Shown piece after piece: positions 2,909-63,901 of a DNA stretch of 64,000 nt (position 1 is its first letter; each line of letters begins with the position of its first letter). A program made the translations under genes and the position numbers. The stretch is from a virus (lineage: Duplodnaviria; Caudoviricetes), in the IMG/VR virus record IMGVR_UViG_3300025939_000001, positions 1,891-65,890 of that record; one strand, written 5' to 3'. The notes below the pieces were generated by a model. It was not told the origin of the DNA and did no database searches. It saw only the letters and a program-made list of their open reading frames with translations.

Positions 2909-3420
2909 GTGGCACGTTCAGCCTAGCTCTCGAGGCGGTCTTGGCTTCGGTGCGTGGGAAGCTGACTGTGACACCCACTGGGTGGCCAGCGGAGGCGCGG
3001 GAGTACATCGTACCTGGCGCTCTCGCGTGGGACAAATGCGAGTGTGGTCTGCTCGCCATCGAATGGCAGAGCGCGAATTACACCGCCGCATTTCCCAACC
3101 CACGTCCAGCACTCGCGGATGGATGCAAGCCCTACCTTGCGCTTCAGCTGTTGGTGACGGTGTTGAGGTGCGCACCGAATCCGGGACCGCACGGCGAACC
3201 GCCATCGGCTGAGGCACTTGGCGCGGCTGCGATCATCAACCTTGATGATGTTGAGGCGCTGCTCACCGGCACATCGCAGGCCGCATCGACGCTTGAGGAC
3301 AACAACGTCATCCTGCAGTACTCACTGGGTCAGGTCTCTCCGGCTGGTCCGCAGGGTGGCTGTGTTGGTGTCACACAGACGATTCACCTTGGCTTTGCGA
3401 ATCGCTGGGGGCCATGCTAA
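2905..3420 (+). CDS. Tail terminator / connector protein
   Basis: Lies between the adaptor and the neck gene. WDKCECG and GPQGGCVG motifs fit actinophage tail terminators. Confidence 0.55.
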   Translation: MSGTFSLALEAVLASVRGKLTVTPTGWPAEAREYIVPGALAWDKCECGLLAIEWQSANYTAAFPNPRPALADGCKPYLALQLLVTVLRCAPNPGPHGEPPSAEALGAAAIINLDDVEALLTGTSQAASTLEDNNVILQYSLGQVSPAGPQGGCVGVTQTIHLGFANRWGPC

Positions 3421-3839
3421 TGGCGAAGGTGTATTTCAGATACTTTCCTGAAGCGATTCGTAAGCTCTTCAGCAATCCTGCATCCACAGGTGTGCGTAAG
3501 ATGCGTACGAAGGCTGTGAAGGTTCAAGCGCTTGCACGTAAGAATCTTCTTCGTCCACCTGGTGGGTTCGATACCGGTGCGCTCAGTGCGTCAATCGAGA
3601 TCACGCAAACGATGGTCGACGGTGCCATCGCCTTTCAGGTTGGTTCAAAGCTTCCTTATGCGCGATATGTGCATGAGGGTACAGGCATTTATGGCCCAAA
3701 GGGTCAGATGATCAAGCCTGTTCGAGCTAAGGCACTTCGTTGGCGTGGTCCTGGTGGTGATGTCATCTTCGCAAAGCAGGTTCGTGGCATTAAACCGAAT
3801 CCATTTTTGCGTGATGCTCTTATCGCTGTTCGTGATTGA
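3414..3839 (+). CDS. HK97 gp10-like neck/tail completion protein
   Basis: DTGALSASI, YARYVHEGTG and V-GIKPNPFLRDAL motifs. Confidence 0.7.
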   Translation: MLMAKVYFRYFPEAIRKLFSNPASTGVRKMRTKAVKVQALARKNLLRPPGGFDTGALSASIEITQTMVDGAIAFQVGSKLPYARYVHEGTGIYGPKGQMIKPVRAKALRWRGPGGDVIFAKQVRGIKPNPFLRDALIAVRD

Positions 3840-3908
3840 TCTTTCTAATGCAGAAGTCTCTCCCAACACGGATTACGGTAGCTGTAGCCGTTCTATGTTG
3901 GAGGATGT

Positions 3909-4349
3909 ATGGCTGAGATCGTTGAGATCATGGACTTCGCGGCTGATGATGTGATCATCGAGTTCAACGTCGGTAAAGATCACTTCATCTGTGCCCCGGA
4001 CATTCCACTCGGTATCATGCAGAAGATCGCTGGTCTCAAGAACCTTCAGGATACCGTGCAGAAAGATGGTATGGAGCCTATCCTTGCCGTCTTTGATGAG
4101 TTTCTGACTTCTACGTCTGCGGTGCTGTTTCGTGAGTGCGTCGAGGTGAAGAAGACGATCGGTCTTCGACGGATCATGCGGATTCTTCCGTGGATCATGG
4201 AGAAGTATGGGCTCCGCCCTACCCAGCCGTCCTCGCCCTCATCGACTGGGTTGAGCGACGGAGAAACTGGTATCAATTCCACGGCTGGTGTATCTCCACT
4301 GGGGTTGCCAACGTCGCCCGACTCTCCGCAGCAGACGCTCTTTCCCTAA
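3909..4349 (+). CDS. Tail assembly chaperone (G)
   Basis: Immediately upstream of the tape measure gene. Ends ...KYGLRPTQPSS..., the usual pre-frameshift pattern. Confidence 0.8.
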   Translation: MAEIVEIMDFAADDVIIEFNVGKDHFICAPDIPLGIMQKIAGLKNLQDTVQKDGMEPILAVFDEFLTSTSAVLFRECVEVKKTIGLRRIMRILPWIMEKYGLRPTQPSSPSSTGLSDGETGINSTAGVSPLGLPTSPDSPQQTLFP

Positions 4350-4564
4350 TTCACTTCTACATCGTCAAAGACATCACTGATGAAGGCGAGTATCGTAAGC
4401 TGTCGGCGCAGCTATCGGGTCCAATGCTCGTCACAGATGTAAAAAGACTTCGTAAGATCAAAGATCGCGCTCCTGATGAACCTCCAATGCCTGCATGGTG
4501 GGATGATGACGACGAAGAAGCAGCGAACACGAGCATCGCTGTTGCGCGTCAGCTTGGCTTTTAG
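4215..4564 (+). CDS. Tail assembly chaperone frameshift extension (GT), -1 frame
   Basis: Overlapping ORF 4136..4564 is in the -1 frame, has no convincing start and ends 9 nt before the tape measure. Candidate slip site CGC CCT ACC at 4215-4223. Confidence 0.7.
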
Positions 4565-4573
4565 GAGTGATCG

Positions 4574-7198
4574 ATGACGAGTCCCGTCTACGGTGAAGGC
4601 TTCATCATCATCCGACCAGACTTTGGTCGGTTTGATGATGAACTTCGCCGTGGCGTCAACCGCGTGCTTGACCAGCTCGGCGACGACTTCCAGATGTTCG
4701 AGCGTTTCGTCAGCAACATCTTCGAGGAGATCGCTGATGAGATGGTCTTTCACATGCGGTACGCAGACCGCGTTATCAGTCGCATCTTCGCTGAACTCTC
4801 ACGTGATGCTCGCATGTGCGGTCTGGCGATCGCCGAGGCGTTCGCATTTGGGTCACGAATAGCACGTGAAGAGCTAGATGATCTGGAAGATCGTGCCCAG
4901 AGGGCGTTCCGGAACATCAGGCAAGCGGCGCGTGGTTCCTCGACGTCGATGATGGGTATCTTCAGCACGCTTGGCGTTCGGCTGATGAGTCTTTTCTCAA
5001 ACCTATTCAGTTCAGGAAGTCAAGCAGGTGCTGGAGGTGCGAACGCCGCCTCTGGTATTGGCAGTTCACTGATGTCCAGTCTCAGTGGCATTGGTGGAAT
5101 GGTCAGCAGCATCGGTCTCATGGGTGCGATCATTCCACTTGCGCTTGAGATGGTCGGCGTCGTCATTAATCTCGCAGGTGCGTTGCTCGCATTGCCTGCC
5201 GCGGCTGGTGTTGCGGCCGCTGCGTTCATTCCACTTAAGATCGCCTTCAATGGTGTTGGTGAAGCACTCTCCGCGATCTGGTCTGGTGACCCAGAAAAGA
5301 TCGCTGAAGCCATGAAAGATCTCGCGCCACATGCACGCGCAGTGGTGAAAGAATTCACGGCGTTTGTTGCTCCCTTGAAGACGATGGGGAAGGCGATCCA
5401 GCAGGGTTTCTTCGTGCCACTTGAGGGCTCGATCACGAAACTGGGCAATACGATCATCCCCGTGCTCAGCAAGAACATCGCAGGTATCGGTTGGGTCTGG
5501 GGCGAGACAATCTCGCAGATCGTCGATGCGATCTCGACACCAACGTTAAGCAACGCCATCGAGGGCATCATTCTCACAGCGATGAATATCATCGCTCGAT
5601 TCGGTCCAACGCTAGCAAGCTTCTTCTCATCGATCATTGGTCTCATCAGTAAGGGTCTGCCATACGTTCAGCGATTCGCCTACTGGATCGCAAGCCTTGT
5701 CGATGCATTCTCCCAGTGGTTGACGAAATCCACCGAAAGTGGCAAGGTCACAGGCTGGCTCGATCAGGCATGGCAGGCTGGTAAGAAGCTGTATGAAGTC
5801 ATCAAGCAGCTGAGCATCTTCGTTGGCTTGATGTTTGGCTCGTTTGGTGATGAAGGACAAGACACGCTTGGTGGCATGGCGGAAAGCATTGCCAAGGTAA
5901 ACGCCTACCTTAAGTCATCTGAGGGCCAGGAATCACTGCATAACCTCGGTGTTGTCATCCACTGGGTAGGCAACGCATTCGTTCTGCTGATCGCAAGTAT
6001 GACCGGTGCGTATTACGCATTGAACACACTCTTTGACGGTGTTCGAGCTCTTGGTGGACTTTTTGTCCTCATGGGTCGAAATATGAAGAGTCAGTGGGCA
6101 CTCGCTGTCAGCTGGACGACGACCGCGTGGAATGCCATTGTTTCTTTCGTCACGACAGCATGGGGTATGCTTGTTGACTTCGTCATCATGCATTGGGATA
6201 GTCTAAAGAAAATTTTCACTGATGGCTGGGCAAGTCTGACGAGCACAGTCTCAACGTGGTATAACAACACGGTCTACTTCCTCACGAACTTCCCAAGGAT
6301 CGTGAAGGAATTTCTTGTCGACGCCGTTATGAACGCTGCATACTACATCGGCTATGCGGTGGGTCTGCTTATTGGCTCATTCATGTTGCTTCCGCAGGCT
6401 GCGAAGCAGGTTTGGTCGGCACTTGTCACGGGGTGGAACGCTGTCTTAGCGTTCTTCACGCAGACGATCCCCGCACTCGCCGCGAATGTCGGTAAGTGGT
6501 TCTCCGACATGTGGAACACAGCATACTCCACCGTGGCGAATTTCGTCACCAACACGCAGGCGAAGGCAGCTGAACTTCCCAGCAAGGTCGGCGACCAGAT
6601 CTCGCAGACTCGTCAACGGGTCATTGATCGATTCACCGAGCTGCGTGATGGCGCCATCGAACGAGTTCGTGGTCTCGTTAGTGGTGCACGTGGTGAGGCG
6701 TCGAAACTTCCTGATCAGGTCAGCAACGCCATTCGCGGTGTCATCAGCAAGACCTATGACATTGGTCGTGACATGATTTATGGCATGATCAACGGCATCA
6801 GGAGCGCTGCATCGGCGCTGTGGAATGCAGCACGTGATGTCGTGATGAACGCGTGGCAAGGCGCGAAGGATGCGTTGAAGAGCAAGTCGCCGTCCAAGAA
6901 GTGGGCTGAGCTTGGTGAAGACAGCGCCGCAGGTTATCAGGTTGGTTTCGACGGATACAACCTGACCGACTCGATCGCGACTGCTGTTAAGATGCCACTC
7001 GACGCCTTCAGTCGACGTGGAATGCAGTCACCGACGGTCAACAACTCGGTGCAGGTTGGCGGTGCTCAGCTCGTCGCGTACCTTCAGATTAGCGATGGGC
7101 AGCTTCAACCTGTTGTCGTCGCAACCCTCAAGGAAAATCCACAGGAAGTTGCTCTTGCCGCTGAGCAGGGCAGCTCACAGCTGGCACGGCGGAGGTAA
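4574..7198 (+). CDS. Tape measure protein
   Basis: 874 aa, Ala/Gly-rich and helical with periodic Trp/Phe repeats. C-terminal SKSPSK motif. Follows the chaperone genes. Confidence 0.92.
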   Translation: MTSPVYGEGFIIIRPDFGRFDDELRRGVNRVLDQLGDDFQMFERFVSNIFEEIADEMVFHMRYADRVISRIFAELSRDARMCGLAIAEAFAFGSRIAREELDDLEDRAQRAFRNIRQAARGSSTSMMGIFSTLGVRLMSLFSNLFSSGSQAGAGGANAASGIGSSLMSSLSGIGGMVSSIGLMGAIIPLALEMVGVVINLAGALLALPAAAGVAAAAFIPLKIAFNGVGEALSAIWSGDPEKIAEAMKDLAPHARAVVKEFTAFVAPLKTMGKAIQQGFFVPLEGSITKLGNTIIPVLSKNIAGIGWVWGETISQIVDAISTPTLSNAIEGIILTAMNIIARFGPTLASFFSSIIGLISKGLPYVQRFAYWIASLVDAFSQWLTKSTESGKVTGWLDQAWQAGKKLYEVIKQLSIFVGLMFGSFGDEGQDTLGGMAESIAKVNAYLKSSEGQESLHNLGVVIHWVGNAFVLLIASMTGAYYALNTLFDGVRALGGLFVLMGRNMKSQWALAVSWTTTAWNAIVSFVTTAWGMLVDFVIMHWDSLKKIFTDGWASLTSTVSTWYNNTVYFLTNFPRIVKEFLVDAVMNAAYYIGYAVGLLIGSFMLLPQAAKQVWSALVTGWNAVLAFFTQTIPALAANVGKWFSDMWNTAYSTVANFVTNTQAKAAELPSKVGDQISQTRQRVIDRFTELRDGAIERVRGLVSGARGEASKLPDQVSNAIRGVISKTYDIGRDMIYGMINGIRSAASALWNAARDVVMNAWQGAKDALKSKSPSKKWAELGEDSAAGYQVGFDGYNLTDSIATAVKMPLDAFSRRGMQSPTVNNSVQVGGAQLVAYLQISDGQLQPVVVATLKENPQEVALAAEQGSSQLARRR

Positions 7199-7200
7199 CG

Positions 7201-8799
7201 ATGAGTCGTGGCTTTGAGGGTCGTCCACTGGAGAACCCGAACAACTGCACTGACCCGTACACACCATCATTCTGGCTTGGAAAGCCAGGCGCACTGACGC
7301 AGATTAGGATGCCTGATGCGGGCATTCGTCGTGATGGTGTCGATAACTTCGCTGTGAAGAACTTGCTCGATGGACAGTCAGTCGATCGATCGCCCTATCT
7401 CTGTCGTACGTGGACATTTCAGCACCAGTGGCTTCGTCCTGAAGTCATGTCCGTGTTCATGGAGTTTGCCACTCGTCAACGCGGCATTGGGCCGTTCATC
7501 CTCATTGATCCGCAGATGAAGAATCTACTGACGCCGAATCAGGCATCCGGGACCGATGCACTGCATACCACTGAGGGATTCAAGGTCGACCCGGTGGTGT
7601 ACAGCACTGTGATCGACACTATGAGTGGCGTCGTCTCAGGCAGCTGGGGAACTGCAGACGTCACAGGGCAGTCATGGACCACAACGATCACGCCTAACGA
7701 CTACTGGAAGGATGGCACGGTTGGACAGGTTCGCCCAACTGCACTGAACAGTAATCGTCACGCATTCTTGACAAGCGATTCGTATGCCGATCGTGTCGTT
7801 CAGGCTGATCTTCAGTTCAGTGCCATCCCTGCGTCTGGTCTCGTTCGACACGGCATCATGGGTCGAAGCACAGGCACATCGAACTACTATGCCGCACTGC
7901 TTGAGGTTGGCCCCACGATGGCGCCAACCTTGACACTCGTGCGTGTCATCTCTGGCACTCCGACGATCATTGGCACAACCGCAAACGTCGGCATCACCAC
8001 CGTGTCTGTGGGTCTCTTTTACACGATTGAGATCTCATGCATCGGTAGTGCCATCAAGGCTCGTGTATGGCAAGTGAACACAACGAAGCCGCTCACCTGG
8101 CATCTTGAGGTCACCGACACAGCGCTTACCACAGGAACCATCGTTGGCACTGTGAGTCGTAACGAGACAGCCGCAACGACGCATATCGCACGATACGATA
8201 ACTTTCTTTCCACGCCGTCGGTGACGAACGCTCTTGCATCATCAGTTGATGATAAGCAACAGGGTGAACGCTCTCTGAGCTGGACGATTTCACCTCCTGT
8301 GACAGGTTCGAGTAGCCCCATGCACGTGCTGCCTCAGACGGGTCTGTACGGCTTCTGCCTACCGCCTAGCGCAGTCGTTGCGTTCTCTGGCTGGGTCAAG
8401 CTTGGATCGACATCTCTCGACCCAGTGGTGACCGTTACACCGAACCTGGTCTGGATGAACGGTGTCGGCGCTGTACAGTCGACAGTTGTCGGAACGAGTG
8501 TACTCGCTGTAACTGGATCATCCGGCGTGGGATGGCAGAAGTTCTGTGTCACAGGTATTGTCCCCACTGGGTCAGCTGGTGTCTATCTTGATCCGCAGAT
8601 CATACTGACGAACTCGTCCATCGGAGCGCTCGTTAGTGTGCTTCTTGATCAGCTGCAAGTTGAGCTGACTTCCACTGGGCAATGCACCACGTGGGAGTAT
8701 GGTCAGGGACAGCCGCTTGTTGGTGTTCGAGCCGATGGTGAATCGATTCCACGCATTCTCAGGACAGATCTTACGTACATCGCTGTGGAGGTCACATGA
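7201..8799 (+). CDS. Minor tail protein (Dit-like) with inserted beta-sandwich/carbohydrate-binding-like domains
   Basis: First gene after the tape measure. WLGKPGAL and GPFILIDP motifs. T/S/V-rich internal region. Confidence 0.65.
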   Translation: MSRGFEGRPLENPNNCTDPYTPSFWLGKPGALTQIRMPDAGIRRDGVDNFAVKNLLDGQSVDRSPYLCRTWTFQHQWLRPEVMSVFMEFATRQRGIGPFILIDPQMKNLLTPNQASGTDALHTTEGFKVDPVVYSTVIDTMSGVVSGSWGTADVTGQSWTTTITPNDYWKDGTVGQVRPTALNSNRHAFLTSDSYADRVVQADLQFSAIPASGLVRHGIMGRSTGTSNYYAALLEVGPTMAPTLTLVRVISGTPTIIGTTANVGITTVSVGLFYTIEISCIGSAIKARVWQVNTTKPLTWHLEVTDTALTTGTIVGTVSRNETAATTHIARYDNFLSTPSVTNALASSVDDKQQGERSLSWTISPPVTGSSSPMHVLPQTGLYGFCLPPSAVVAFSGWVKLGSTSLDPVVTVTPNLVWMNGVGAVQSTVVGTSVLAVTGSSGVGWQKFCVTGIVPTGSAGVYLDPQIILTNSSIGALVSVLLDQLQVELTSTGQCTTWEYGQGQPLVGVRADGESIPRILRTDLTYIAVEVT

Positions 8800-11700
8800 G
8801 ACAGGTCTCTGCGGCGCTTCGTGCTGCGATCGACGCAGGTGAGCGTGTCGTTCGATCGGTCTTCACTGTGGACTGGGACAACGATGGTGTACAAGATCTT
8901 GATGATCTGACCCACCAGATTGGTCGAGTCTCCGCCACGCAGTCGTTGGAGAGTAGCCTTCCAGCTCAGGTGCAGGTTGTGCCTGGCGTCGCCGTTGCAG
9001 AACTCACCGCATCTGTGGAGCGTGGAAACCGCTTTCGATATGACGTACCTGTGACACTGCGTGGCGTTACGTCGGCGTCAAGTGGCAGCGGAACCGTTAC
9101 GACGATCACAGTGCCTCGACCCAGTGATGCACGTGAGGGCGATATCATGCTGCTCTCCGTGTTCATCTCCGGTAATCCTGTCACTCTTGGCATCGGTGGC
9201 CAGTTCGCCTACTATGACATCACTCGTGGAACGAATGTTCCATGGGTTGTGATGTCGGTTCGCGGTGACGGGGTGAGCTTCAGTGACACGGCGTACGCAC
9301 GTGTTGAGGGCGTGTTGCTTGCACGTCGTGTGACGTCGACTGAGCCAAGCATCTACACGATCAGCGTTCCGCCTGATGGTGTCGCGGTCTTTGTCGGGTC
9401 AGCAGTTAACATTGGTGACCAGAACATTATCGGCATTACAGATTTTGACACCAAGGGAGAAGACGGAGTTGACAACCCAACCTCGGTTGTGATGCCGCCT
9501 GTCACCGTCGATCTGCCTGGATCGATGATCGTTTCGTTCTACGCTGCGTCGTCGTATCTCGTCAGTGGGTCATCCTTCTCACCAAGTACCACCGATGATG
9601 TCGAGCAGGTTGAGCTTGCGACGACGTATCCTCCCGTCAGTGGTGCAGCAAATGTTCGCATGGCTGTTATGACGACAGCGAATCCTGCCCGAGGTCGTCA
9701 GCAGAAATCAGCGATCTACACGTCGAGTGGCTCGCTGACGTCGACGGTTGGTTTCGTTGTCGTGCTTGGTCCTAAGCTTGCTGGTGACGAATCACAGCAC
9801 GCCGCGTGGATGATGAGCGAGCTGAATCCTGACTCGCCATACGCTGGTAAGATGCGCATCCGTCGTCCTGTGCGATGGGATCTCTACTTCGTCACTGAAA
9901 GTGGCTTCGAACGCGTGCCGCTTTTCACTGGCTTCACAACGACGACAAGTGGCACGTCACGGAATCGCAGTGCTGAAATTCGTGCACTCGACAACCGTGA
10001 GAACCTGCGTGGTACACGACAAGGCATGGACGTTGTCGCTGAGAGTCCCGTTGCACGTGATGAGTTCTTAGGTCTTCCATTCATGCCTGGACTTGAGTCG
10101 ACGTGGGTTGTCTCCAAGCTGCTCTTCTACGCGTTCTATCGAAGCACAACGAACGGTGTCTTCTCATTTGAGAATCAGAGCCCACTGCGAAATGGTCTTG
10201 GTTACTTCGCAAGTCCTCTAGCGAACAAGTTCTCGTTCCTTTGGGTTCCATTTCACGGATCTGCGCATCCACTGGTCGGAGACGTCTACAACGCGTACGT
10301 AGAAAGCCCTACGCTCGTCCGTAGTCGCTTCGAATTTGACCCTGGACCGTTCGTATCGGCCACCCGAGCTCTCCCCTCAGGGACGAGTCTGAACGCCACG
10401 TGGATTGGTTTCGCTGAGGGATATTCGTCGCAAACATGGCACCCAACCACTGGGCAGCTGGCTGGTCGCATTCAGCACTGGCTTAAGCGTGGCACTCGAG
10501 CAGGATACTGCTTCATCACGATCACTGACACCGTTCCGGGCAATTCGCCAACCTACACATGCATTTCACGTATCGCACCTGATGGATCGTGGTCGTTCAG
10601 GGTGACGCAGCCTGGCGGTGTCTCGCGCATTGTCGTTGGTCCTTCTGTTCCTGAAGACGACAACTGGCACTTCATTGGTGTGCACTTCAACTCCATTACA
10701 GGCTCTGTGACTTTTCGTATCGACAGCACGAACACAGTAGTCGCAATGGCAACGTGGGTCAATACCACACCAAGTGTTGGCTTTGAAAACGTCGTTACGA
10801 TGTACGTGGGTGATGGCGCATCAATCGCTGAGCTCCAGGTCGCAGGTTCGTTTGACCAGACGTCAGGGCTTCAAGTTGGCATCTCACTGACTGATGCGTG
10901 GGCAAACGACAACTTCGTTCCGACAGCCTTCATCGACAAGTCGGATAACGTTCTTGACTGCGTGCCTGTCATCGATAGCGCGATTGATGCGTTTAACGTC
11001 ATCGCCGCAATTTCAGATGCGGAGTTCTCTGCGTTCTTCTTCGATGCAGACGGGTATCCGCACTACCGGAACACCAGATCGAACGTCACCACCACTGGGC
11101 AGACTGTGCAAAAGCAAATCACAGCACGTCGCTCACTTGAAGACTTGCGATACGAATCTGGCGTGCAGCAGATCGCCAACATCATCAGCGTGAGTTGGAC
11201 GGAATTTCTTCCAGTCGTCAATGGTGAGGCATACCGCGCTAATGGTGTCATCACGATTCCAGCAGGTACTGGACTCTCGTTCACTGTTATGCTTCCAGGT
11301 CCTGTGTTTGACAACCAGGGCGTTACGTTCTCAGCGAATTCTGCGATTGACGGCACTGGCACTGATCTTTCATCGTACATATCAACGAGTATCACGTCAA
11401 CCGAGCCATACTCAGTCACGTTCACGGTAAACAACGATGGTCCTATCACTGCATTTCTCGTTGATGGATCTGGTCAGCCAGATCTCGTTGTGATTGCATC
11501 GTGGATGGCACCACAGACGAACACAAGCATGCCGGCCACATACACGGATGCCACATCGATTCGCAAGTACGGTGAACAGGCGCTGCCAACGATTGGTGCC
11601 AACGAGTGGATGCAGCGTTATGACTCAGCGGCCTCACTTGCGCTTACGCTCCTCTCTGACCTTGCCGACGCAAAGCCGGTGCTGACAAGTGTTCCTATCA

Positions 11701-12412: not shown

Positions 12413-12647
12413 GTGGAGTATCGCGCGACAGGGCTACGTCATGCGTGGACACGTCGAATCCTTGCGTGAAGCTCGTGACGCAGCCGCCCAGTGGATGCGT
12501 GAGAATGGCTTCACACGCTTCGAGGCAGAGAAGGAAAGCGAGACTGCGAACGTCCAGCTTGCCTGGTGGGATGAGGCAAATGAGATGTTTACCCAAGCTG
12601 ATCATGAAGGCGCTGAACCGGTAACCGTCGTCAACATTCCAGTGTAG
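12402..12647 (+). CDS. Hypothetical protein (possible tail fibre-associated)
   Basis: ATG at 12402 within ORF 12171..12647. Overlaps the previous stop. Confidence 0.55.
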   Translation: MPSEWSIARQGYVMRGHVESLREARDAAAQWMRENGFTRFEAEKESETANVQLAWWDEANEMFTQADHEGAEPVTVVNIPV

Positions 12648-13960: not shown

Positions 13961-14517
13961 GAATTCGACTACGTGAGAAGCATACGCCTGAGATGCTCGC
14001 TGAGCTCTATGATGGTGTGTACGATCACAGGAAGTGGGCTGAACACGTCGCGCGTGTGGACTGGACGATTCGTCGTCTGCAGCACTTCATCGATCTGCGA
14101 CCGGAGATCACGCGTGTGGTCGATCTGTCGTGTGGTGATGGTGCGATCCTCAACGGGCTCAACGTGCCCAACAAGGTGTTTGGCGATATCGTCCCCGCGG
14201 ATCATCTGACAATCGCGCCCATTGCAGCTGAGATCGCTGTGCGGTACATGACCGGAGACCTGCTGATCTGCTCTGAGACGCTCGAGCATCTCGATGACCC
14301 AGACCAGTTTCTTCGTGATGCACAGGAGAACTTCAAGTTCATTGCCATCACCACCCCACTGGGTGAGTCAGATCCCGAAAAGAACTACGAGCACTACTGG
14401 GGTTGGGATCTCATCGGCGTGAACAAGATGCTTCGAATCACCCAGTGGTATCCTCTTGTTGAGGAGACTCTTCCACTCGACTATTACACGTATCAGTTCT
14501 GGATCGCGAGGTCGTAG
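13957..14517 (+). CDS. SAM-dependent methyltransferase
   Basis: VVDLSCGDG, SETLEHLDDP and EHYWGW motifs. Confidence 0.8.
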   Translation: MRIRLREKHTPEMLAELYDGVYDHRKWAEHVARVDWTIRRLQHFIDLRPEITRVVDLSCGDGAILNGLNVPNKVFGDIVPADHLTIAPIAAEIAVRYMTGDLLICSETLEHLDDPDQFLRDAQENFKFIAITTPLGESDPEKNYEHYWGWDLIGVNKMLRITQWYPLVEETLPLDYYTYQFWIARS

Positions 14518-49758: not shown

Positions 49759-49826
49759 CCTGGTACGATAGCTGTACGAGCGGGGCCTGACGAATTTCAA
49801 GCTGATGTGTTCCCCGCTCGTACCAA

Positions 49827-50116: not shown

Positions 50117-50334
50117 CGCTAGGGACCCACAGGTCGGGTATGGGATGGGCGCTGAAAGGCTCCATGTGGGTGCGTTGCCTTCGGGTGATAGGAGATCCCG
50201 ACCCTTATGGAAAGACAAGTCCTGGAACACCTAGGTGGAGACGCTTGAACCTCTTCTCGTCGTGAACGCTGCGATGGGCTGATGAGGGAGTCATAGAAGC
50301 CCATGATGGTTAGTACAGGCACATGAAATGAAAC

Positions 50335-50374
50335 GGGAAAGGACCCCAGTTGCGAGGGGGTCCTTTCCTGTTTA
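50335..50374 (+). terminator. Intrinsic terminator after the RNA cluster
   Basis: GGAAAGGACCCC/GGGGTCCTTTCC stem followed by TGTTT. Confidence 0.75.
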
Positions 50375-51743: not shown

Positions 51744-52163
51744 GTGGGAGCACCTCCGCACTGGATGACGGTGCTACTCGTATGTCTTGCGACGTACCGA
51801 CTGACCCGCTTCATCACAAAGGACGCGTTCCCGCTCATCGCCGGTCCACGCCGGTGGGTTGATACCCAGTGGAATCCATTCCCTGATGAAAACGTCTGGC
51901 AGTCGTATAAGCAGTCACCGCCCGCAGCGAAGGTGATCGTCATTGAGAACCTTCGTAAGACCGGTGTCCGGTTCAAACCGAACGGGTTTCTTCGATCCAT
52001 CGCCTACCTCATCGGCTGCGCGTGGTGCACGTCGATCTGGGTCGCTGGCGGTGTCGTCATCCTTGTTGCACTGTTCACGCCAACCCACTGGGTGACTGGC
52101 ATCTTGCTCTGGCTGACCGCCTCGGCCGTCACCGGACTGATCTCTCAGAGGGAGCCTGAGTGA
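51744..52163 (+). CDS. DUF1360-like membrane protein
   Basis: LATYRLTRFIT.D.FP...PR...L.GC.WC.S.W. Directly before the portal gene. Confidence 0.75.
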   Translation: MGAPPHWMTVLLVCLATYRLTRFITKDAFPLIAGPRRWVDTQWNPFPDENVWQSYKQSPPAAKVIVIENLRKTGVRFKPNGFLRSIAYLIGCAWCTSIWVAGGVVILVALFTPTHWVTGILLWLTASAVTGLISQREPE

Positions 52164-56800: not shown

Positions 56801-58953
56801 CGCGTCGTGACGCCATCTTGAAGCTGTACGGTCTCGATGCGAATAACAACTCGACTTTGAATGTGCCTGCGCCTACGCCTACGGCAGCACCGACCGTTTC
56901 GCCAACACCAGTTGATCCGCTTTCACTGGGCGAACTCCCAACTGGAACACCTGGTGAAATCGTTGACAGTCTCAACAAGTTGCACGCTGTTGGTGATCTT
57001 ACTGATCAGGATCATCAAGCATTGGTGAAGGGCGTTACCAACGGTAAGACCTTCATGGGCAAGATGGTTGTTGGAGCGCACAACACCAAGGTGAAAGCGG
57101 CGAATTACACCCCGCCTCCGGCTGATCCTGGTGGTTTCGGTGCGATTCATAATCCTGATCTTGATACGCCTACGGCAATGCCAGTTGGTACTTCGGTTTC
57201 AGCGATTGACATCATTGATGGTGTTGGTGGTTTCGCGTATGGCGAAGTGCATGGATCTGGATCGAACGAGTGGGGTGAGTCGTGGAGTGTTGCTCCAGGT
57301 CTCAGTGGAACTGTGCTCGTACAGATGGACGGTGCCAATGGCGCAACCGTAATGACATACCCAGACTTTGTCGCGTACACGGCGGACAACAACATTCAGT
57401 GGGAATCGAACGATGGAAGTACATCGATCTTCCCCAAGACGAACATGCCCGCAAAGAAGGCCACGGCACCCGTCTCCACGCTGACGCCAGCACCAGCAGT
57501 GGTGTCTACGACGCCGTCTGTGACGACTGCAGACGACATTCCGGGTAATAAGCAATATGACTTCTACCAGCACTTTAAGGCGGAGAATGTTTCGCCTGCG
57601 TGGTCTGGTGCAAAGATTTACAAGAGTATGCAAGCCGCTAAGCTGAAGATGGCTGGCGATCCGCAGTTCGCCAACATCTCAGATGCTGAGCTGCTTAAGA
57701 TTCTTGATAAGCAGCATAACATTGCCAAGGCGACCAACGTCAAGGCATACAGCACGAAGACTCGTGCGTGGCTTAAGACGCCGCAGGGACAAAAGGCGTT
57801 TAAGGAGCTCAACTCTGGCATTGCCACGCCGCCGCCAGGCATTGCGAAGAAGGTTGCGCCTTCTGCGTCACCAGCAGTCCCAACGACGCCGAATGTTTCA
57901 CTTGACACTTCACCAACACTTTCGCCTGACGCAAAGGTGGAGGTGTATGGAAAGTTCAAGGGGTCGACCTATGGTAAGTACTACAAAGATCCTGCTGCTG
58001 ACATTTACTGGAATGCTGTTCAGCAGGCAAAGCTTCAAGGAACGACACCTGGTGCTGTTCTTGCGGCTGTTGATGAAGAGGGTTCAAAGAAGTTCGGTGT
58101 CGCGAATGCTGGTGTGTATCAAGCCAAGGTCAACGACTGGCTGAAGACACCATCTGGTCAGGCGCTTGCAAAGCAGATCGACGCTGGAACATATGCTCCT
58201 GGTACGAGTGTCGTCGGTGCGAAAAAGGCACCTGCGAAGAAGGCGAAGAAGGTTTCAGCGTACGGTGGTGGATACGGATCAAGTATCGCAGGTCCGGCGA
58301 CGCATCCTGCGTCGACGCCGCTGAACCAGAAGGTTCAGGACGTATCGCAGAACGTTCCGCCGTTCGATGAAAGTAAGACTGCCGCAGACTTCCCCGTCAT
58401 CAACAACACGCAGGCTGCCGCTCTGTGGGATGACATGGTCGAGCAGAGTGGTGAGCCGTTCCAGGCAAAGCAAAAGGCGTCGTTGAAGTACTACACAACG
58501 AATCCTGGCTACAAAGCCATGAACAATTACCTGCGTGGACAGCAGGGTGCAACAGATGCGACACAGCAGCACATCAACAACGCACAAGCCGGTATGCGCC
58601 CAACCACGCGTGATATCGTGCTTCACCGTGGAAACAGCTCGTTCACCGACGGTGCAGGTCGCCACTGGGGTTCGTACGAAGAAATTTCACAGTACGTCGG
58701 CACTGATCTGCATCAGGAAGCGTTTTTCTCTGCGAGTGTTGGTGGTAAAGCTGACTTTGGCGGCTCCATCATGATGGAGATTGAGGTTCCAAAGGGCACG
58801 CCTGCGGCGTACGTCAAGGCGTTCAGCGCCTATAAGAACAGTGAAAGTGAAATGCTTCTTGCTGCGAATCTTCGGTATCGCATCGTGAAGGTAGAGAAAA
58901 AGGGATACACGACGGTGGTTCGCATGCGTGTCGTTGCGAAGGATGAGGCGTAA
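53863..58953 (+). CDS. MuF-like minor head protein fused to PI3/4K/HipA-like kinase and VIP2-like ADP-ribosyltransferase domains
   Basis: KEW.AT.D..TR.TH..ADGQ...F.VG...L.FPGDP......INCRC (MuF). GGQAGSN.G...YYVK...NEVLA...W..N.D....DN...IDVGGS (kinase). YT...Y...N.YLR..HRG..SAS..ESE.LL (ART). Confidence 0.85.
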   Translation: MELTGLTEAQVDEYVDAFAALMRQRTRAAFTLAAQSMTVNSEVVVASPIDALGEIIGSWKTSVKTDLMPYLSKLFAKAGKAVSTPLGIAAHLDTIAPVLGSVEESLTAYANDLYDAGHLAVMVGWQDGETVMAMSDRLQSVPKQKEDKAHSVAQTLVTAVVNGGEWEQLLAISAKFGNITLKEWMATQDSHTRFTHEAADGQTVPLEQKFVVGDTLLDFPGDPFGDLDEIINCRCTTRYHSEPVSQNSTTQTSPDALSADSSVDTTEQISASAATNSNWKESDHPRGKNGKFIKKGTSTYVAVTKLAKNGKNFSSWTKSEQSSFLNEIPIITNEQWNNLTTDQKHDIETAVSDALDEGISGAADAQSHLDELGSAEVFDDADLNVFDPDTALPDNAPSGGVAPSGVSAQAQEAADKGFITHQQASDLMDALALDEISEDEAKLKLAGMLTPAPTAAVEYANVNNDIYEAFVQDEISLSQYEKLSSDLVNGVSPSDVVKSLKKMQGENKAAAAAAPSPDTDIDAAYEHNTITQSQHYELSKLSKTASAAELQQALDKATSETTEAKKKLKGKINSAHANGMIDDAQHAELLNQVDKYNDPNGVEKTLNNVIAKNAAEASEPDVAPITTGSPKPIKITHGLIHAKYAPGTTVAVDEKGNKIVWNGSSYDIIGPNGDPVATGIKKSKLYALLNTYNADAQWHEPGNQPVAVTHAAPLDAAPTPNPVPHPVSFPAPSAVDSALDDAFGPTNTGLASPSTPAVAQGMDMSKWKMVGGQAGSNKGALFEAPDGKRYYVKSLKSKEHAQNEVLAAALYRAAGINVPEVRHVTEGAPPGWSNVIASPIVPNAKSNKKGLTTPGAFQEQAQQTYAVNAWLANFDVVGLTHDNMIESDGQVHLIDVGGSMGYRAQGNKKKASDWNEDPTSALEGLRNPNLNPSAASVFGSMTYEQQRESAKALLGITDAQIDQMVKDAGLPAKQAAILKARRDAILKLYGLDANNNSTLNVPAPTPTAAPTVSPTPVDPLSLGELPTGTPGEIVDSLNKLHAVGDLTDQDHQALVKGVTNGKTFMGKMVVGAHNTKVKAANYTPPPADPGGFGAIHNPDLDTPTAMPVGTSVSAIDIIDGVGGFAYGEVHGSGSNEWGESWSVAPGLSGTVLVQMDGANGATVMTYPDFVAYTADNNIQWESNDGSTSIFPKTNMPAKKATAPVSTLTPAPAVVSTTPSVTTADDIPGNKQYDFYQHFKAENVSPAWSGAKIYKSMQAAKLKMAGDPQFANISDAELLKILDKQHNIAKATNVKAYSTKTRAWLKTPQGQKAFKELNSGIATPPPGIAKKVAPSASPAVPTTPNVSLDTSPTLSPDAKVEVYGKFKGSTYGKYYKDPAADIYWNAVQQAKLQGTTPGAVLAAVDEEGSKKFGVANAGVYQAKVNDWLKTPSGQALAKQIDAGTYAPGTSVVGAKKAPAKKAKKVSAYGGGYGSSIAGPATHPASTPLNQKVQDVSQNVPPFDESKTAADFPVINNTQAAALWDDMVEQSGEPFQAKQKASLKYYTTNPGYKAMNNYLRGQQGATDATQQHINNAQAGMRPTTRDIVLHRGNSSFTDGAGRHWGSYEEISQYVGTDLHQEAFFSASVGGKADFGGSIMMEIEVPKGTPAAYVKAFSAYKNSESEMLLAANLRYRIVKVEKKGYTTVVRMRVVAKDEA

Positions 58954-58954: not shown

Positions 58955-61924
58955 ATGACATTCCCTTGGAGCGACGGCTCGGACATTGCATTCGCGCCAG
59001 TCGGTACTGCCAAGACTCAGGTCTGTATGCTCGACAGCGAAGTCGAGGCGGGTGGTGACCCCACACTGCCTAATGATGCACCTGAGGAAGATGACGACGA
59101 GTCAGAGCTGACTGACGAAGAAGTCGATCAGCTGCTGAATGGAGACTTCACCCCACTGGGTTTGACCGCTGCGGCAGAGACTTCAGAGCACACTGGAGCT
59201 ATGATCGCGCTCCTCCCAACGATTGCTGATCAAGAGCGCCTTGCGGTGCCTGGAGGTGAAGACGAAGAGGAGCTTCACCTAACGTTGTTCTACCTTGGCG
59301 ACGCGAACAAGATTCCGCCAGGCATGCGTGATCACATTGTCATGAACATGCAGGACATCGCACGCAACACATCGATCGTTGACGCGGATGGATTTAGTGT
59401 CAACATCTTCAATCCACGTAAGACAGACGATTCTTGTGTCGTTCTGGGTTGCAGTGGTGATGAACTTGCTCGTCTGCATAGGCGTGTCAGTGACATGCTA
59501 TCACATATTGATGAGATGCCAGATCAGTACGCACCGTGGATTCCACATGTCACTCTTGCATACTCAAACGACTCTTCACTCCCTGGTCAACTGACGAACC
59601 GGACTGGTCCGATTCGCTTTGACGTTCTCCGAGTTGTCTTCGCTGGACAAGCTACTGACTTTCCGTTGTACGATGGTACAGCGACGAGTCACCCAGTGGA
59701 AGATGCAGGGACGGCTGAGTCAGTAGTCGCTGCTGGTGGGAAAGAAAGCGACGTAAATAAGAAGGGTGGAAACCACAACCTCAAGGACTACTGGGTCCGA
59801 GGTGCAGGTGCCGCAAAGATTGGTTGGGGCACGGACGGTTCGTTTGCTCGATGTGTAGCTCAGCTCGGAAAGCATGTCAAGAACCCGCAGGGCTTGTGCG
59901 CGGAGTATCACCACGCAGCCACCGGTGAGTGGCCCGCTGAAAAGGGAGTTGAGTCTGCGGTGGAGATCGCTGTGACGGCTGACGCAGCCGCCGACGATTC
60001 TGAGTACGACGGTGGCTGGGAAGGCGTCCTCATGGTTGAGGACAGTGACACCGGTGATGGTCGTAGGTTCGCTGGTGGTTCTGTCACGTGGGGTGATACT
60101 GAGACGACGATTCACCCCTTCCAGTGGGCACCTGCGAACATGGGTGAGCACAAGGGTTCGGTGACCGCGGGTCGGATCACGAACATCTGGCGTGATCCGA
60201 CGAATCCTCGTGTCATCCGTGGTAAGGGCACGTTCAACCTGAACGATGAGGATGGCGTTCGCGCCTTCAATCAGGTGAAGGATGGATACGCCGGCGGCGT
60301 CTCCGTCGATCCTGACCAGATCGCTGACGCAGACGTCGAGCTGGAGTTCGCCAGTGAGCCGGCGAACCCCATCGATGCGATGCAGCAGAAGCCGACCAAG
60401 ACAATTTTCCACGCTGGTCGGATTCGCGGCGCCACACTTGTTGCGTTCCCCGCGCTGGTCGAGGCATCGATCAAGCTGACCAAGAAGAGCGATTCTCCGG
60501 CTCTTGTCGCTGCGTCGACTGATCCGTGGAAGGCCGTCGAGCATGAGATGCGATTCAGCGACGAGATCGATGGTCTCACCGCTTCCGTCGCATTCGCGTA
60601 CGTGCGTGATCTCGATGACATCGTCGATCGTCGGCAGTGTCGCTTCCTGCATCACGAGATCAACGAGGACGGTACCCCTGGGCTACCGAATCTCACCGCA
60701 TGCGCAAGTCACATCGGAGCGATCAACGCGGGTCGGACGTTCGGTCTTCAGCTGGATGAACTACGTGACGCATACGCGCACATGGCGCAGCACTTCACCG
60801 ATGCTGGCATGACGCCTCCCGCGTTTGCCGGCAAGGTCTCCGACGCCATTGTCGCATCCATCACTCCGGCACCGCCGCTTGAGTGGTTCGGTAACCCGAA
60901 CCTGTCGGGTCCGACGCCAGTGAGTGTTACCGACGACGGCCGGGTGTTTGGTCATGCAGCTGCGTGGAACTCCTGCCACACGGGGTTCGCCGACACCTGC
61001 GTCTCCCCTCCGTTTGAGAATGACTACTCGTACTTCACCACCGGTGAGGTGCTCACAGCGGAAGGGCACCGTGTCGCGGTCGGTCAGATCACTCTTGGAA
61101 CGTCGCATGCGCCGACTCGTGGTGTATCTCTTGCCAAGGCGATTGATCACTATGGAGACACGGGCACGGCGGTTGCTGATGTCACGGCTGGCGTGGATGA
61201 CCATGGAATCTGGATTGCTGGTGCTGTACGTCCTGGCGCCAGTGTGGAGCAGCTTCACGCACTCCGCGCCAGTGCTCTTAGTGGTGACTGGCGTCGGATT
61301 GGTGGGAATCTCCGCATGGTGGCTCTTCTCGCTGTGAACGTCCCCGGCTTCCCGATTCCACGGCTGTCCACCGCGGTTAACAGTGGTAAGCAGCTGTCAC
61401 TTGTCGCATCCGGCATCGTTCAGAACGATGGCACGGGTAACGGCTTCTCTGCTGAGCTCGCACTACTCGCTGATTCCTGCGGCATTCCACTGGGTGATGC
61501 ACCTAGTGAGCTGGATCTGCTCATGAGTGAGGTGTTCGACATCGTCGACGCGCATGGTAACAAGCACAGTGAGCGAAACGGTAAGTTTACTGGTCACGTT
61601 GGCAAGGGTGGCGGTAAGGGCGGCAAGTCTGGCGGTGGCAAGAGCGACGCTGATCGTCTCGATGAACTTGAGCGGAAGGTGGAGCGAAGCCAGCGTAAGG
61701 GTGGCAAGCAGATCAGCAAGGACGAAGACAACGAGCTGAATCGTCTCCGCAACAAGGTGTATGGCGGCGGTGACGACAAGGACAGTGACGGCGGTAAGAA
61801 GAGTGATGAAGACCGCCTCCAGGAACTCGAAGACAAGGTCGAGAACAGTAAGGGTGGCAAGGCCATCTCCAAGGAAGAGGACGAGGAACTCAATCGTCTT
61901 CGGAACAAGATCTACGGATCGTAA
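58955..61924 (+). CDS. Capsid maturation protease-like protein with an N-terminal 2H phosphoesterase domain
   Basis: HLTL and HVTL 2H motifs, L..YW..G.G..KI.WGT.G.F.RC module, protease-region GATLV..PAL..A, GH.A.W..CH, ..LSGDWR. Between the MuF gene and the capsid gene. Confidence 0.75.
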   Translation: MTFPWSDGSDIAFAPVGTAKTQVCMLDSEVEAGGDPTLPNDAPEEDDDESELTDEEVDQLLNGDFTPLGLTAAAETSEHTGAMIALLPTIADQERLAVPGGEDEEELHLTLFYLGDANKIPPGMRDHIVMNMQDIARNTSIVDADGFSVNIFNPRKTDDSCVVLGCSGDELARLHRRVSDMLSHIDEMPDQYAPWIPHVTLAYSNDSSLPGQLTNRTGPIRFDVLRVVFAGQATDFPLYDGTATSHPVEDAGTAESVVAAGGKESDVNKKGGNHNLKDYWVRGAGAAKIGWGTDGSFARCVAQLGKHVKNPQGLCAEYHHAATGEWPAEKGVESAVEIAVTADAAADDSEYDGGWEGVLMVEDSDTGDGRRFAGGSVTWGDTETTIHPFQWAPANMGEHKGSVTAGRITNIWRDPTNPRVIRGKGTFNLNDEDGVRAFNQVKDGYAGGVSVDPDQIADADVELEFASEPANPIDAMQQKPTKTIFHAGRIRGATLVAFPALVEASIKLTKKSDSPALVAASTDPWKAVEHEMRFSDEIDGLTASVAFAYVRDLDDIVDRRQCRFLHHEINEDGTPGLPNLTACASHIGAINAGRTFGLQLDELRDAYAHMAQHFTDAGMTPPAFAGKVSDAIVASITPAPPLEWFGNPNLSGPTPVSVTDDGRVFGHAAAWNSCHTGFADTCVSPPFENDYSYFTTGEVLTAEGHRVAVGQITLGTSHAPTRGVSLAKAIDHYGDTGTAVADVTAGVDDHGIWIAGAVRPGASVEQLHALRASALSGDWRRIGGNLRMVALLAVNVPGFPIPRLSTAVNSGKQLSLVASGIVQNDGTGNGFSAELALLADSCGIPLGDAPSELDLLMSEVFDIVDAHGNKHSERNGKFTGHVGKGGGKGGKSGGGKSDADRLDELERKVERSQRKGGKQISKDEDNELNRLRNKVYGGGDDKDSDGGKKSDEDRLQELEDKVENSKGGKAISKEEDEELNRLRNKIYGS

Positions 61925-61933
61925 GGAGTCATC

Positions 61934-62104
61934 ATGGGTTGTGGATGCGGTGGGGCAAAGATCGAGGCCCTGACGACCAACCAGGCACAGGAACTCATCA
62001 ACGCTGCTCGTCAGCAGGCGCTGCTGACTGAGCAGGAAGCGATGATTGCGTCGATCGCGCAGGCGTCGCAGAATGCGAACTCGAACGCATCTGCACAGCG
62101 GTAA
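61934..62104 (+). CDS. Small MGCGCG-type protein (56 aa)
   Basis: AAGGAG RBS and MGCGCGG start. Typical of actinophage head clusters. Confidence 0.65.
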   Translation: MGCGCGGAKIEALTTNQAQELINAARQQALLTEQEAMIASIAQASQNANSNASAQR

Positions 62105-62181
62105 TTCTCACGGTTTGCTACTGCTTCAGAGATCGAATACTATGGCCCTAGGCAACAATTCCTACGCAGTGAGGTTCATCA

Positions 62182-63852
62182 ATGGGTGACAAGAACAAGG
62201 GAGTGTCCTTCCCTGAGGATGTGACCTCTCTGTCGGATGCGGAGCTTTCTGAGCTTCGCGACGCCGCCGTTTCCGAATTCCAGGCGCTGTCTGCGGATGA
62301 GGTCGACGAAGAGAAGATGTCCACGCTGCGTACTCTGGCGGCTGGCATCAAGACCGTTCGCAAGACCATCCAGACGCGCAGTGATGCCGCTGCAAAGCTC
62401 GCCGCTGAGCATGCCTCGATGAAGGATCTCGCCGCTGAGCTTGAAGCGGAGAACGAGAACAAGGACGACAAGGGTGAGAAGGAAGCCGTCACGGCCGGCG
62501 CTGGTGTTGGCGGTGCTCGTACGAACGAGCGCACCCCTGGTGTTCGTGGTCTGAACGTTCCGCTCAGTGAGGTTTCCGCGCGACAGGCTGACAAGCCGAA
62601 GATTCTCGGTAAGCGCCGTGAGTCTGTCCTCGTCGCTTCGGCGGATATCCCCAACCACGCCACTGGGTCGACTCTCGACGACATGGAGCACCTCGTCGCT
62701 GCGATGCAGTCGCGGGCACGCTCCCTACCGATCCTGAGCCGTGGTGACGACACCACGCGGTACCCGATCGCGTCGCTGCAGCGGGACTTCCGCTACACGC
62801 TCGACCCGAACGCGTCGCCGGAACAGATCAATGACGTTCTCACCGCTGCCGCTGACCCCGACGCACTCGTCGCGGCTGGTGGCTGGTGTTCCCCGTCTGA
62901 GATCAACTACGACTTCTACAACATCGTCGCCGTCGACGGTATCCTCGACCTCCCGACCGTCGGCATCAACCGTGGTGGTATGCGCTGGCCGGTCTCGCCG
63001 TCCTTCGGTGACCTCGTCGGCAACGCCGCCATGTGGTCCTGGTCTGAGACGCAGGACATCGCAGCCGTCACCGGTACCGCACAGTCCGGCACCAAGACCT
63101 GTGCGCGCGTCCCTTGCCCGTCGTTCCTCGAGGAACGGCTCGGCTGTGACGGTCTCTGCCTCACGGTCGGCAACCTCACCGAGGATGCCTACCCTGAGCT
63201 GATCGCCAACCACACTCGACTGCTGTTCGCCGCGCACGCGCACAAGATGAACGCGAAGCGCATCCTCCAGCTGTACGCGGGTTCCGCGAGCGTTACCGGT
63301 ACCTTTGGTTCCGCCGGCGCTGGTGTCGTCAACCCCGTTCTCGGTGCTCTCGAGGTCAGCGCGATCGACTACCGCGAGAAGTACGCCATGGCTGATGGCG
63401 CTGTTCTCGAGGTCATTCTGCCTCGCTGGCTTCGGGCCGTCATGCGCGCCGACCTCCGCAAGCGTACTCGTGAGAACACGAGCATGCTCGCGATGACTGA
63501 CGCCGCGCTCATGCAGCTGTTCGATAACATCGGTGTTCGCATCCAGTGGGTGGGTGACTGGCAGACTCGTACGACTGGTCTGTTTGGCACGACCACCGTG
63601 CTGACCGCGTGGCCGACGACCGTTCAGTTCATGATGTACGCGCCTGGTACGTGGGTGATGGGTCAGGGCCTCCGCCTTGACCTCGGTATCATCCGCGACT
63701 CCGTGCTCAACGCCACCAACGACCACACGGCCGAGTGGATGGAAGAGTGCTGGCTGATCGCCAAGGTCGGTCACGAGTCGCGTCGTGGCACCATCAACAT
63801 CTGCCCGGACGGTACCGTCGGCGCGGCCGACCTCGTCGCCTGCGACATCTAA
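62182..63852 (+). CDS. Major capsid protein with an N-terminal scaffold/delta domain
   Basis: Coiled-coil N-terminus, ALVAAGGWCSPSE..YD and RGG motifs, highly biased codon usage. Confidence 0.9.
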   Translation: MGDKNKGVSFPEDVTSLSDAELSELRDAAVSEFQALSADEVDEEKMSTLRTLAAGIKTVRKTIQTRSDAAAKLAAEHASMKDLAAELEAENENKDDKGEKEAVTAGAGVGGARTNERTPGVRGLNVPLSEVSARQADKPKILGKRRESVLVASADIPNHATGSTLDDMEHLVAAMQSRARSLPILSRGDDTTRYPIASLQRDFRYTLDPNASPEQINDVLTAAADPDALVAAGGWCSPSEINYDFYNIVAVDGILDLPTVGINRGGMRWPVSPSFGDLVGNAAMWSWSETQDIAAVTGTAQSGTKTCARVPCPSFLEERLGCDGLCLTVGNLTEDAYPELIANHTRLLFAAHAHKMNAKRILQLYAGSASVTGTFGSAGAGVVNPVLGALEVSAIDYREKYAMADGAVLEVILPRWLRAVMRADLRKRTRENTSMLAMTDAALMQLFDNIGVRIQWVGDWQTRTTGLFGTTTVLTAWPTTVQFMMYAPGTWVMGQGLRLDLGIIRDSVLNATNDHTAEWMEECWLIAKVGHESRRGTINICPDGTVGAADLVACDI

Positions 63853-63901
63853 GCCTGATGTCCCCACTGGGTAGGTCCACGAGTAGCCGAGGAGGTCAGT
63901 A

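Follow-up and report, generated by a model that had tools for sequence, protein, structure and literature searches.

A word that selection maintains along an entire genome reveals that the chromosome is read as a whole by some machine. The bacterial words Chi, KOPS (FtsK-orienting polar sequences), and the uptake sequences each led to a mechanism, whereas few such words are understood in phages. In this study, we describe the word CCACTGGGY in an uncultured phage represented by the 65,890-bp IMG/VR contig IMGVR_UViG_3300025939_000001 (G000 in the comparisons with relatives). The analyzed window is the 64,000-nucleotide stretch that corresponds to bases 1891-65890 of this contig. The ends of the contig share a 99-bp terminal overlap, which indicates that the phage genome is complete and circularly assembled.

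The stoperators of the Cluster A mycobacteriophages (the sites of L5 gp71) are asymmetric, number in the dozens, are dispersed through genes, and have lineage-specific variants; their orientation follows transcription, and they depend on the immunity repressor of a temperate phage. The phage nick motifs have long been known, and their function is still not known. Phage tf carries 14 copies of the nick word 5'-TACT/RTGMC-3', while PaP3 and LUZ24 use TACTATGAC, and this difference has been read as co-evolution of the nickase and its site (PMC3517423). The word WACTRTGAC (Rembedalsseter) has approximately 9 net copies versus 0.7 expected in 61 phages, and 88% of the copies are inside genes (PMC11780129). 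Chi ranks as the commonest octamer in both LLS (23 copies, 1 per 1.86 kb, 20 of them in one orientation) and P1 (50 copies, 1 per 1.9 kb) (PMC12315714). Finally, the PrimPol of NrS-1 is documented to read a template word of 8 nt, 5'-TTTGGTTA-3' (PMC8718748).

Form, spacing, and polarity of the word

The T-ending form of the word, CCACTGGGT, occurs in 34 exact copies in the window (25 on the + strand and 9 on the minus strand), while dinucleotide shuffles give 0.49 +/- 0.72 (maximum of 3); the enrichment is thus stronger than the initial annotation of this DNA had stated. Every position listed there is right, but three copies had been missed, at 8420-8428 on the minus strand and at 47027-47035 and 47629-47637 on the + strand. 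The full word is CCACTGGGY, and the whole 65.9-kb genome contains 55 copies (35 ending in T and 20 in C), one of which is in the part of the contig outside the window. The specificity is sharp: CCACTGGG is found 58 times, with just 3 copies ending in a letter other than T or C, and none of the remaining one-letter variants exceeds 9 copies.

The excess persists under a codon-aware null, in which synonymous codons are permuted inside each gene, as had been proposed earlier. The T form was observed 35 times versus 9.35 +/- 1.76 (maximum of 15), and the Y form 55 times versus 16.0 +/- 2.0 (maximum of 22). Each of the six frame/strand classes contains copies, and spacers or gene borders account for 10 of the 55, so that the word is not a codon artifact, in agreement with the previous view. 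Many sites rest on conserved Trp or Gly codons whose neighboring residues are altered; e.g., (T/A)-Q-W is found where distant relatives have D-W, A-W, or E-W (x-x-W). The selection on the DNA word is therefore sufficiently strong to shape proteins.

The motif had been described as near-palindromic. The core, CCASTGG, is palindromic, but the flanks are asymmetric, i.e., the mirror extension CCCACTGG occurs 32 times versus 58 for CCACTGGG, and both flanks are present in 26 copies. The 17-bp perfect palindrome ACCACCCACTGGGTGGT at 48792-48808, an intergenic site that includes the + copy of CCACTGGGT at 48797-48805, is real but is an exception among the copies. The word is asymmetric and strand-polar and is not a true palindrome, which argues against the dimeric protein on a palindrome that was suggested at first.

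A spacing of about 3 kb had also been claimed. The spacing on the + strand is indeed underdispersed (coefficient of variation [CV] of 0.60-0.62, P of 0.001-0.004), but no phase-coherent period was found in the periodogram, and a fixed 3-kb lattice was rejected because no period was significant in G000. For the ten T copies on the minus strand, the CV is 0.41 (P = 0.003), and the largest gap among all 55 copies is 3.3 kb versus 5.5 kb expected. Even spacing is also observed on the major strand of the relative G002 (CV of 0.42-0.50, P < 0.001).

The 55 copies are split 35:20 between the + and minus strands (approximately 65% on one strand; 25:10 for the T form), and both strands are far above chance. 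The rightward gene blocks contain 23 copies on the + strand and 12 on the minus strand, the leftward block contains 12 and 8, respectively, and the tally of sense to antisense copies is 26:19. Because the + orientation prevails in blocks of both directions, the polarity follows the genome and not transcription. Together with the use of all six frame/strand classes, this same-strand excess sustains the earlier claim of a DNA-level signal that is independent of frame and transcription direction. The word is similar to the stoperators in that dozens of asymmetric sites with lineage variants are dispersed through actinobacteriophage genes; it differs from those of L5, as had been noted, in that the same strand is in excess whatever the gene direction.

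The major strand is opposite to the PolA coding strand in four of the four lineages compared (G000, G001, G002, and G003), and the pooled ratio of major to minor copies is 117:62, for which arithmetic on the counts gives a P value of about 4e-5. In G000, the + strand is G-rich at four-fold degenerate sites whichever way the genes point (+0.063 and +0.071), the hallmark of a strand asymmetry that runs one way, as with unidirectional replication. G-richness likewise marks the major strand in three of the four lineages (strand components of +0.067 in G000, -0.085 in G001, and +0.055 in G002), as would result from one-way replication in which this strand is the exposed template.

These observations bear on the possibility that the word is a functionless by-product of biased repair or gene conversion (very-short-patch-like, as proposed for HIP1 and CCWGG) or of codon or peptide preferences, which we regard as very unlikely. 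A C5 methyltransferase is encoded, and the protein sequence fixes part of the excess, since the shuffle mean is 9.35 compared with 0.5 from base composition; however, all frames and the spacers are used, the two flanks differ in frequency as described above, the methyltransferase does not track the word, and even spacing, polarity, and conservation of position are not expected from mutational drive. Likewise, in contrast to HIP1-like and very-short-patch methyltransferase words, CCACTGGGY is not palindromic, and its presence among relatives does not parallel that of PF00145.

The other + copies of CCACTGGGT are at 2975-2983, 5959-5967, 8564-8572, 14356-14364, 17332-17340 (intergenic), 21608-21616, 23204-23212 (kept in G001, L009, L010, and L029), 25622-25630, 26280-26288, 28364-28372 (kept in four of four close relatives), 31823-31831, 34775-34783, 37780-37788 (at a gene start), 44880-44888, 49203-49211, 52085-52093, 54115-54123, 55739-55747, 59153-59161, 61487-61495, 62660-62668, and 63864-63872 (directly past the capsid gene). 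Its other minus-strand copies are at 14440-14448, 23413-23421 (over a stop codon and likewise kept in four of four close relatives), 25197-25205, 33333-33341, 36741-36749, 41663-41671, 51864-51872, and 59691-59699. The C-ending form, CCACTGGGC, is found on the + strand at 783-791, 8672-8680, 10447-10455, 11092-11100, 15570-15578, 29919-29927, 33597-33605, 44200-44208, and 45059-45067 (shortly upstream of the terminase start) and on the minus strand at 1332-1340, 2612-2620, 12486-12494 (intergenic), 20737-20745, 32317-32325 (intergenic), 37418-37426, 41068-41076, 53809-53817, and 55948-55956.

Two further copies of CCACTGGGC make up an inverted pair at 19590-19616 (19590-19598 on the minus strand and 19608-19616 on the + strand), which is the core of a hairpin with a 14-bp stem (region 19580-19635, -27.9 kcal/mol, z of -5.1). 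The spacer that contains the hairpin is downstream of the leftward gene 19637-19981, and the hairpin lacks a strong U-tract. The arrangement is kept in G001 and G412, and G002 builds the same arrangement from its own dialect; the copies in these pairs are 17-18 bp apart. Obligate pairing of opposite-strand copies as a general rule was not significant.

One reading of the word is that it marks programmed nick sites, at which a phage-encoded nicking activity would cut one strand within the word and produce localized single-strand interruptions in packaged DNA, as in T5 and in phiKMV-like and LUZ24-like phages (tf and Rembedalsseter). Like the LUZ24-like nick motifs, CCACTGGGY is owned by the phage, asymmetric, 9 bp long, enriched, mostly intragenic, independent of expression signals, and present as dialects among relatives (PMC3517423, PMC11780129), and the nick motifs are the only experimentally documented class of such words. 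One-letter variants are at background level, and specificity this sharp resembles that of an enzyme site; nick-less T5 mutants are viable, and a dispensable trait of this kind agrees with the uneven occurrence of the word in the family. On the other hand, the known nick words are on one strand, number 4-14, and are clustered toward one end, whereas the 55 copies here are on both strands (35:20) and evenly spaced. In addition, nicking of both copies would turn the inverted pairs (19590/19608 and those of G001, G412, and G002) into staggered double-strand breaks, and no nuclease gene is confined to word-bearing genomes. We therefore consider this reading doubtful, although it is the second in our ranking.

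Relatives, dialects, and host genomes

The relatives belong to an uncultured phage family that was recovered from IMG/VR by searches with PolA, terminase, and PrimPol. The closest of them (G001 and G411-G414, with PolA 73-81% identical) share CCACTGGGY, to which G414 adds CCGCTGGGY. Conservation in relatives, which the initial annotation had named as a check on the motif, is observed: the word is kept at 28-54% of orthologous positions versus approximately 9% for background 9-mers (8 of 29, 6 of 13, 7 of 13, and 7 of 13 sites in four close relatives). What selection maintains is how densely and evenly the word covers each strand, together with its polarity, and not the exact positions.

More distant members use other dialects. 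G410 (PolA 63% identical) has a weaker word, CGCTGGAY; G003 (IMGVR_UViG_3300044821_000052; PolA 47%) has 46 copies of CCGCTGGGY/RCTGGGT; G002 (PolA 48%) has 35 copies of CCCCCTGGGT versus 2.6 under shuffling; and G426 and G424 have weak versions of the word. No frame-independent word was found in G004 (3300025939_000009), which is very close to G003, in G005, or in most other members of the family (GC content of 0.62-0.69). The core proteins of G003 and G004 are 62-71% identical, and only G003 carries the word; the two have also exchanged the type of primase-helicase, which is a fused 852-aa protein in G003 and encoded by split genes in G004, and their GC contents are 0.52 and 0.615, respectively. 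This pair is the most informative contrast so far. With at least four dialects that share a CTGG core, close relatives that have lost the word, a polarity bound to the map, and protein sequences bent around the sites, the family amounts to a natural experiment.

With regard to cultured phages, a search of the phage collection gave no nucleotide match, and Micrococcus phage Kurnik has a common order of replication and modification genes but no such word. We found no paper that describes CCACTGGGY or its dialects. The word is distinct from the comparable words of other phages (TGTGGGCA, ATATT, and GAACCAA), and its even spacing on two strands, high copy number, and lineage dialects around a CTGG core are new with respect to the known phage-owned asymmetric words.

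Other enriched words were observed in several genomes. Two dense arrays in L131 (IMGVR_UViG_3300038996_000001), at 4627-5057 and 5647-6045, each contain approximately 27 copies of the octamer CCGAACAC; they are 4-5 kb upstream of the terminase gene, were found in no other genome examined, and look like replication-origin iterons. Under the codon-aware null, the PrimPol-bearing L160 (IMGVR_UViG_3300005937_000029) has 33 copies of CAAGATCA in 14 kb (z of 12.5), and L146 (IMGVR_UViG_3300043595_000031), which also bears a PrimPol, has 9 copies of CACTCGTC versus 0.4. In L017 and L018, relatives of 92-103 kb, TCACGTGA and CACGTGA, the core of the actinobacterial parS palindrome, are mildly enriched (6 versus 0.7 and 20 versus 5.8).

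In four Dactylosporangium genomes (11-13.6 Mb), the word has 35-50 copies per strand, which is below the 85-119 copies of the reversed-word control, and it is enriched in none of 401 Actinomycetota genomes. Fifteen of the 401 are unpublished (G129, G010, G183, G400, G235, G057, G248, G027, G345, G157, G091, G277, G327, G352, and G097), and the conclusion on a host word is independent of them. Because the word is not enriched in these candidate hosts, a host Chi or a host uptake word (the DNA uptake sequence, DUS, or the uptake signal sequence, USS) is unlikely, and both were rejected on these counts. CCACTGGGY acts in cis and is the phage's own word.

The same counts weigh on a Chi-like signal, in which a translocating helicase-nuclease (the host AdnAB or RecBCD or a phage pair of SNF2 helicase and Cas4-like nuclease) would read one strand and be switched from degradation to a harmless or recombinogenic mode, which would mark the phage DNA as self. 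A host Chi should be enriched in the host, as Chi is, whereas the word is at or below the control in the genomes examined. The density of approximately 1 per 1.9 kb, the orientation bias, and the rank of commonest oligomer in the genome are similar to those of Chi in the lambdoid phage LLS and in P1, which are rich in Chi and use the host RecBCD. Further features in favor are the asymmetry, sharp specificity, polarity, and even spread of the word, and some dialects contain GCTGG, as does the proteobacterial Chi. Genes for a PD-(D/E)XK (Cas4-like) nuclease and an SNF2 helicase are adjacent at 29097-32023 on the minus strand. However, this pair is equally present in relatives without the word, the orientation bias is just about 65%, and Chi-rich lambdoid phages have no Rec module of their own, whereas this phage encodes one, composed of AAA_24 (Sak4-like), DUF669, and a PD-(D/E)XK exonuclease. 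A Chi-like role is thus improbable, below nick sites in our ranking.

Proposed replication start sites and candidate readers

The reading that we place first, with a probability of roughly 0.3, is that the word provides strand-specific start sites for the phage replisome, with priming by the PrimPol together with a D5-type helicase; we infer both replication as the process and PrimPol as the reader. A replication enzyme of the phage would read the word, and PrimPol with its helicase would begin new strands there on an exposed single-stranded template. If most forks travel the same way around the genome, the + strand would usually be the lagging-strand or displaced template and would therefore need a site every 1-2 kb, while the other strand would keep fewer sites for forks going the opposite way. 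Replication start is ranked first because each strand is evenly covered (every 1.9-3.3 kb) and the majority of the copies are on the exposed template strand as marked by the skew; it is followed by nick sites, a Chi-like regulator, and a binding or modification target.

The spacing of the word on each strand is about the length of an Okazaki fragment, and the phage encodes its own PrimPol and helicase. The candidate reader, PrimPol (40607-41659, + strand; PF09250, E value of 1.4e-16), has conserved Cys and His residues (invariant C40, C43, H54, and H65), and its putative partner, the D5_N or superfamily 3 (SF3)-type helicase, is encoded at 41656-43170 on the + strand (PF08706, E value of 6e-21). 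As for the known primase template sites (the NrS-1 word and GTG, and the GTC-based sites of T7 gp4), a primase, here an archaeo-eukaryotic primase (AEP)-type PrimPol, is encoded, and most copies of the word, at Okazaki-like spacing, are on the strand that would be exposed as template.

Several observations weigh against this assignment. We know of no experiment that links any primase to a genome-wide enriched word, and to our knowledge no primase site is enriched genome-wide or is 9-10 nt long. The identity of PrimPol is a poor predictor of the word, being 52-58% within one dialect and 40% in relatives without the word: the PrimPols of G000 and G001 are 52% identical and these phages share the same word, whereas the PrimPol of G004 is 40% identical and G004 has none. 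The PrimPols of G002 and G003, which are parts of fused primase-helicases, are only 31-36% identical, and yet these phages keep the CTGGGT core. Conversely, G004, G005, and most of the family have homologous PrimPol and helicase genes but no word, and none of approximately 50 loci with PrimPol relatives outside the family showed a CTGG-type word. G003 also has neither even spacing nor strand skew. The helicase of G410 is closer to that of G000 (60% identity) than is that of G001 (49%), yet G410 has another dialect. Our confidence in priming is low because relatives carry the enzyme without the word. The D5 helicase itself is probably not the reader, given the mismatch with the dialect of G410 and the different likely origin iterons of a G002-like phage (CCGAACAC).

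A different kind of reader would be a phage DNA-binding protein, such as the winged helix-turn-helix (wHTH)-like domain of the methyltransferase, for which the copies would serve as binding or targeting sites in (hyper)modification or chromosome organization. The wHTH at 21722-22126 is the C-terminal domain (residues approximately 470-540) of a C5 methyltransferase-like protein (21722-23389, minus strand; PF00145), which is part of a modification gene set. An Atlas search points weakly to wHTH families for this domain (scores of 0.86-0.89, to be taken as a lead only), its putative recognition helix, VYLSL[WY]RL, is conserved, and the copy number of the word is like that of the L5 stoperators; a search of solved structures with the domain gave nothing meaningful. 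The initial annotation had linked the word to modification, but the phyletic pattern is discordant: the word-bearing G003, which is approximately 74% complete, has a dialect without PF00145, and G004 and G005 have PF00145 without the word, so that a methyltransferase target and a very-short-patch drive were both rejected and the protein is disfavored as the reader. The wHTH-like domain is present in relatives both with and without the word, including L018 and L019, and an Asn at the start of its helix does not track the word, since L018 has the Asn and no word. Moreover, the word is not a dyad, and protein binding explains neither the strand polarity nor the even spacing. Binding sites are accordingly the least probable of the four ranked functions.

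WhiB had been put forward as another binder, and no WhiB-family match was found among approximately 50 open reading frames (ORFs) scanned with Pfam. Neither tblastn nor six-frame phmmer found a gene confined to word-bearing genomes, and no protein family combines presence in every lineage that bears the word with absence from G004 and G005. Two candidates for a word-specific gene were rejected: an 83-aa protein also matches G004, and the DUF6011 protein (50801-51154) is also present in genomes without the word.

A tentative reading, about as doubtful as nick sites, is that the word and its dialects are an undescribed phage-owned self word, evenly spaced and strand-polar, that is read by a translocating enzyme of the phage. 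Such a word could tame a nuclease or license many starts on a modified genome, with a specificity that drifts fast between lineages, and would fall outside the nick motifs, the host Chi words, and the ordinary primase sites. If the reader were found, it would become clear how these actinophages, whose DNA is probably base-modified, replicate or protect that DNA, and the result may be a new sequence-specific enzyme (a primase, nickase, or regulator of a nuclease) with a specificity that can be deduced from genome sequences.

Gene map and host of the phage

The large terminase gene (45070-46746, + strand) opens a rightward structural block in which it is followed by the genes for the portal, a fusion of MuF and ADP-ribosyltransferase, and the capsid (62182-63852, + strand); the block continues round the circle to the tail genes and ends near 17 kb. 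The leftward block at 17.3-40.2 kb contains lysis, nucleotide-modification, and replication genes, including those for the C5-methyltransferase-like protein, dUTPase_2, epimerase, AAA_24, DUF669, PD-(D/E)XK nuclease, SNF2 helicase, PolA, dCMP deaminase, and thymidylate-synthase-like and kinase-like proteins. Rightward genes resume at 40.6 kb with PrimPol and the D5_N helicase. Among the approximately 50 ORFs scanned, none matched an integrase or repressor family, and many small ORFs have no match.

The modification gene set is located at 21722-26119 and 34303-37183 on the minus strand and comprises the methyltransferase-like protein with its wHTH-like tail, dUTPase_2, an NAD-epimerase, a 453-aa protein with no assignment, dCMP deaminase, and thymidylate-synthase-like and dNMP-kinase-like proteins. 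Because this set and its order parallel the methyltransferase-MazG-glycosyltransferase cluster of Kurnik, the phage DNA is probably hypermodified.

The host is very probably an actinobacterium and perhaps a member of the Micromonosporaceae, because all homologues of the capsid and PolA in cultured phages are from actinobacteriophages and an endolysin-like gene resembles Dactylosporangium genes. The latter encodes a 305-aa protein next to the holin (20789-21706, minus strand) that matches nothing in Pfam or PHROG; its identity to chromosomal proteins of Dactylosporangium is 62-66%, and it is likely the endolysin. This putative endolysin is the single host-specific clue and is absent from G001, the closest complete relative. 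The host assignment has as its basis only this gene and the actinophage-confined capsid matches.

The MuF/ADP-ribosyltransferase fusion (53863-58953, + strand) is a 1696-aa head protein in which domain matches identify a Mu-F-like domain and a C-terminal ADP-ribosyltransferase exoenzyme domain, and it is probably an ejected effector. In the spacer at 49758-50350, a tRNA with a CUA (amber-reading) anticodon adjoins a tRNA-Met (50045-50117 and 49827-49903, both on the + strand); the genes read through normally in genetic code 11, and the amber-reading tRNA may act as a suppressor. The small-gene region has three copies of the 12-mer AACAGCAAAACA on its + strand, at 48021, 48622, and 50406 (0.16 expected); this 12-mer may be a promoter or regulatory repeat.

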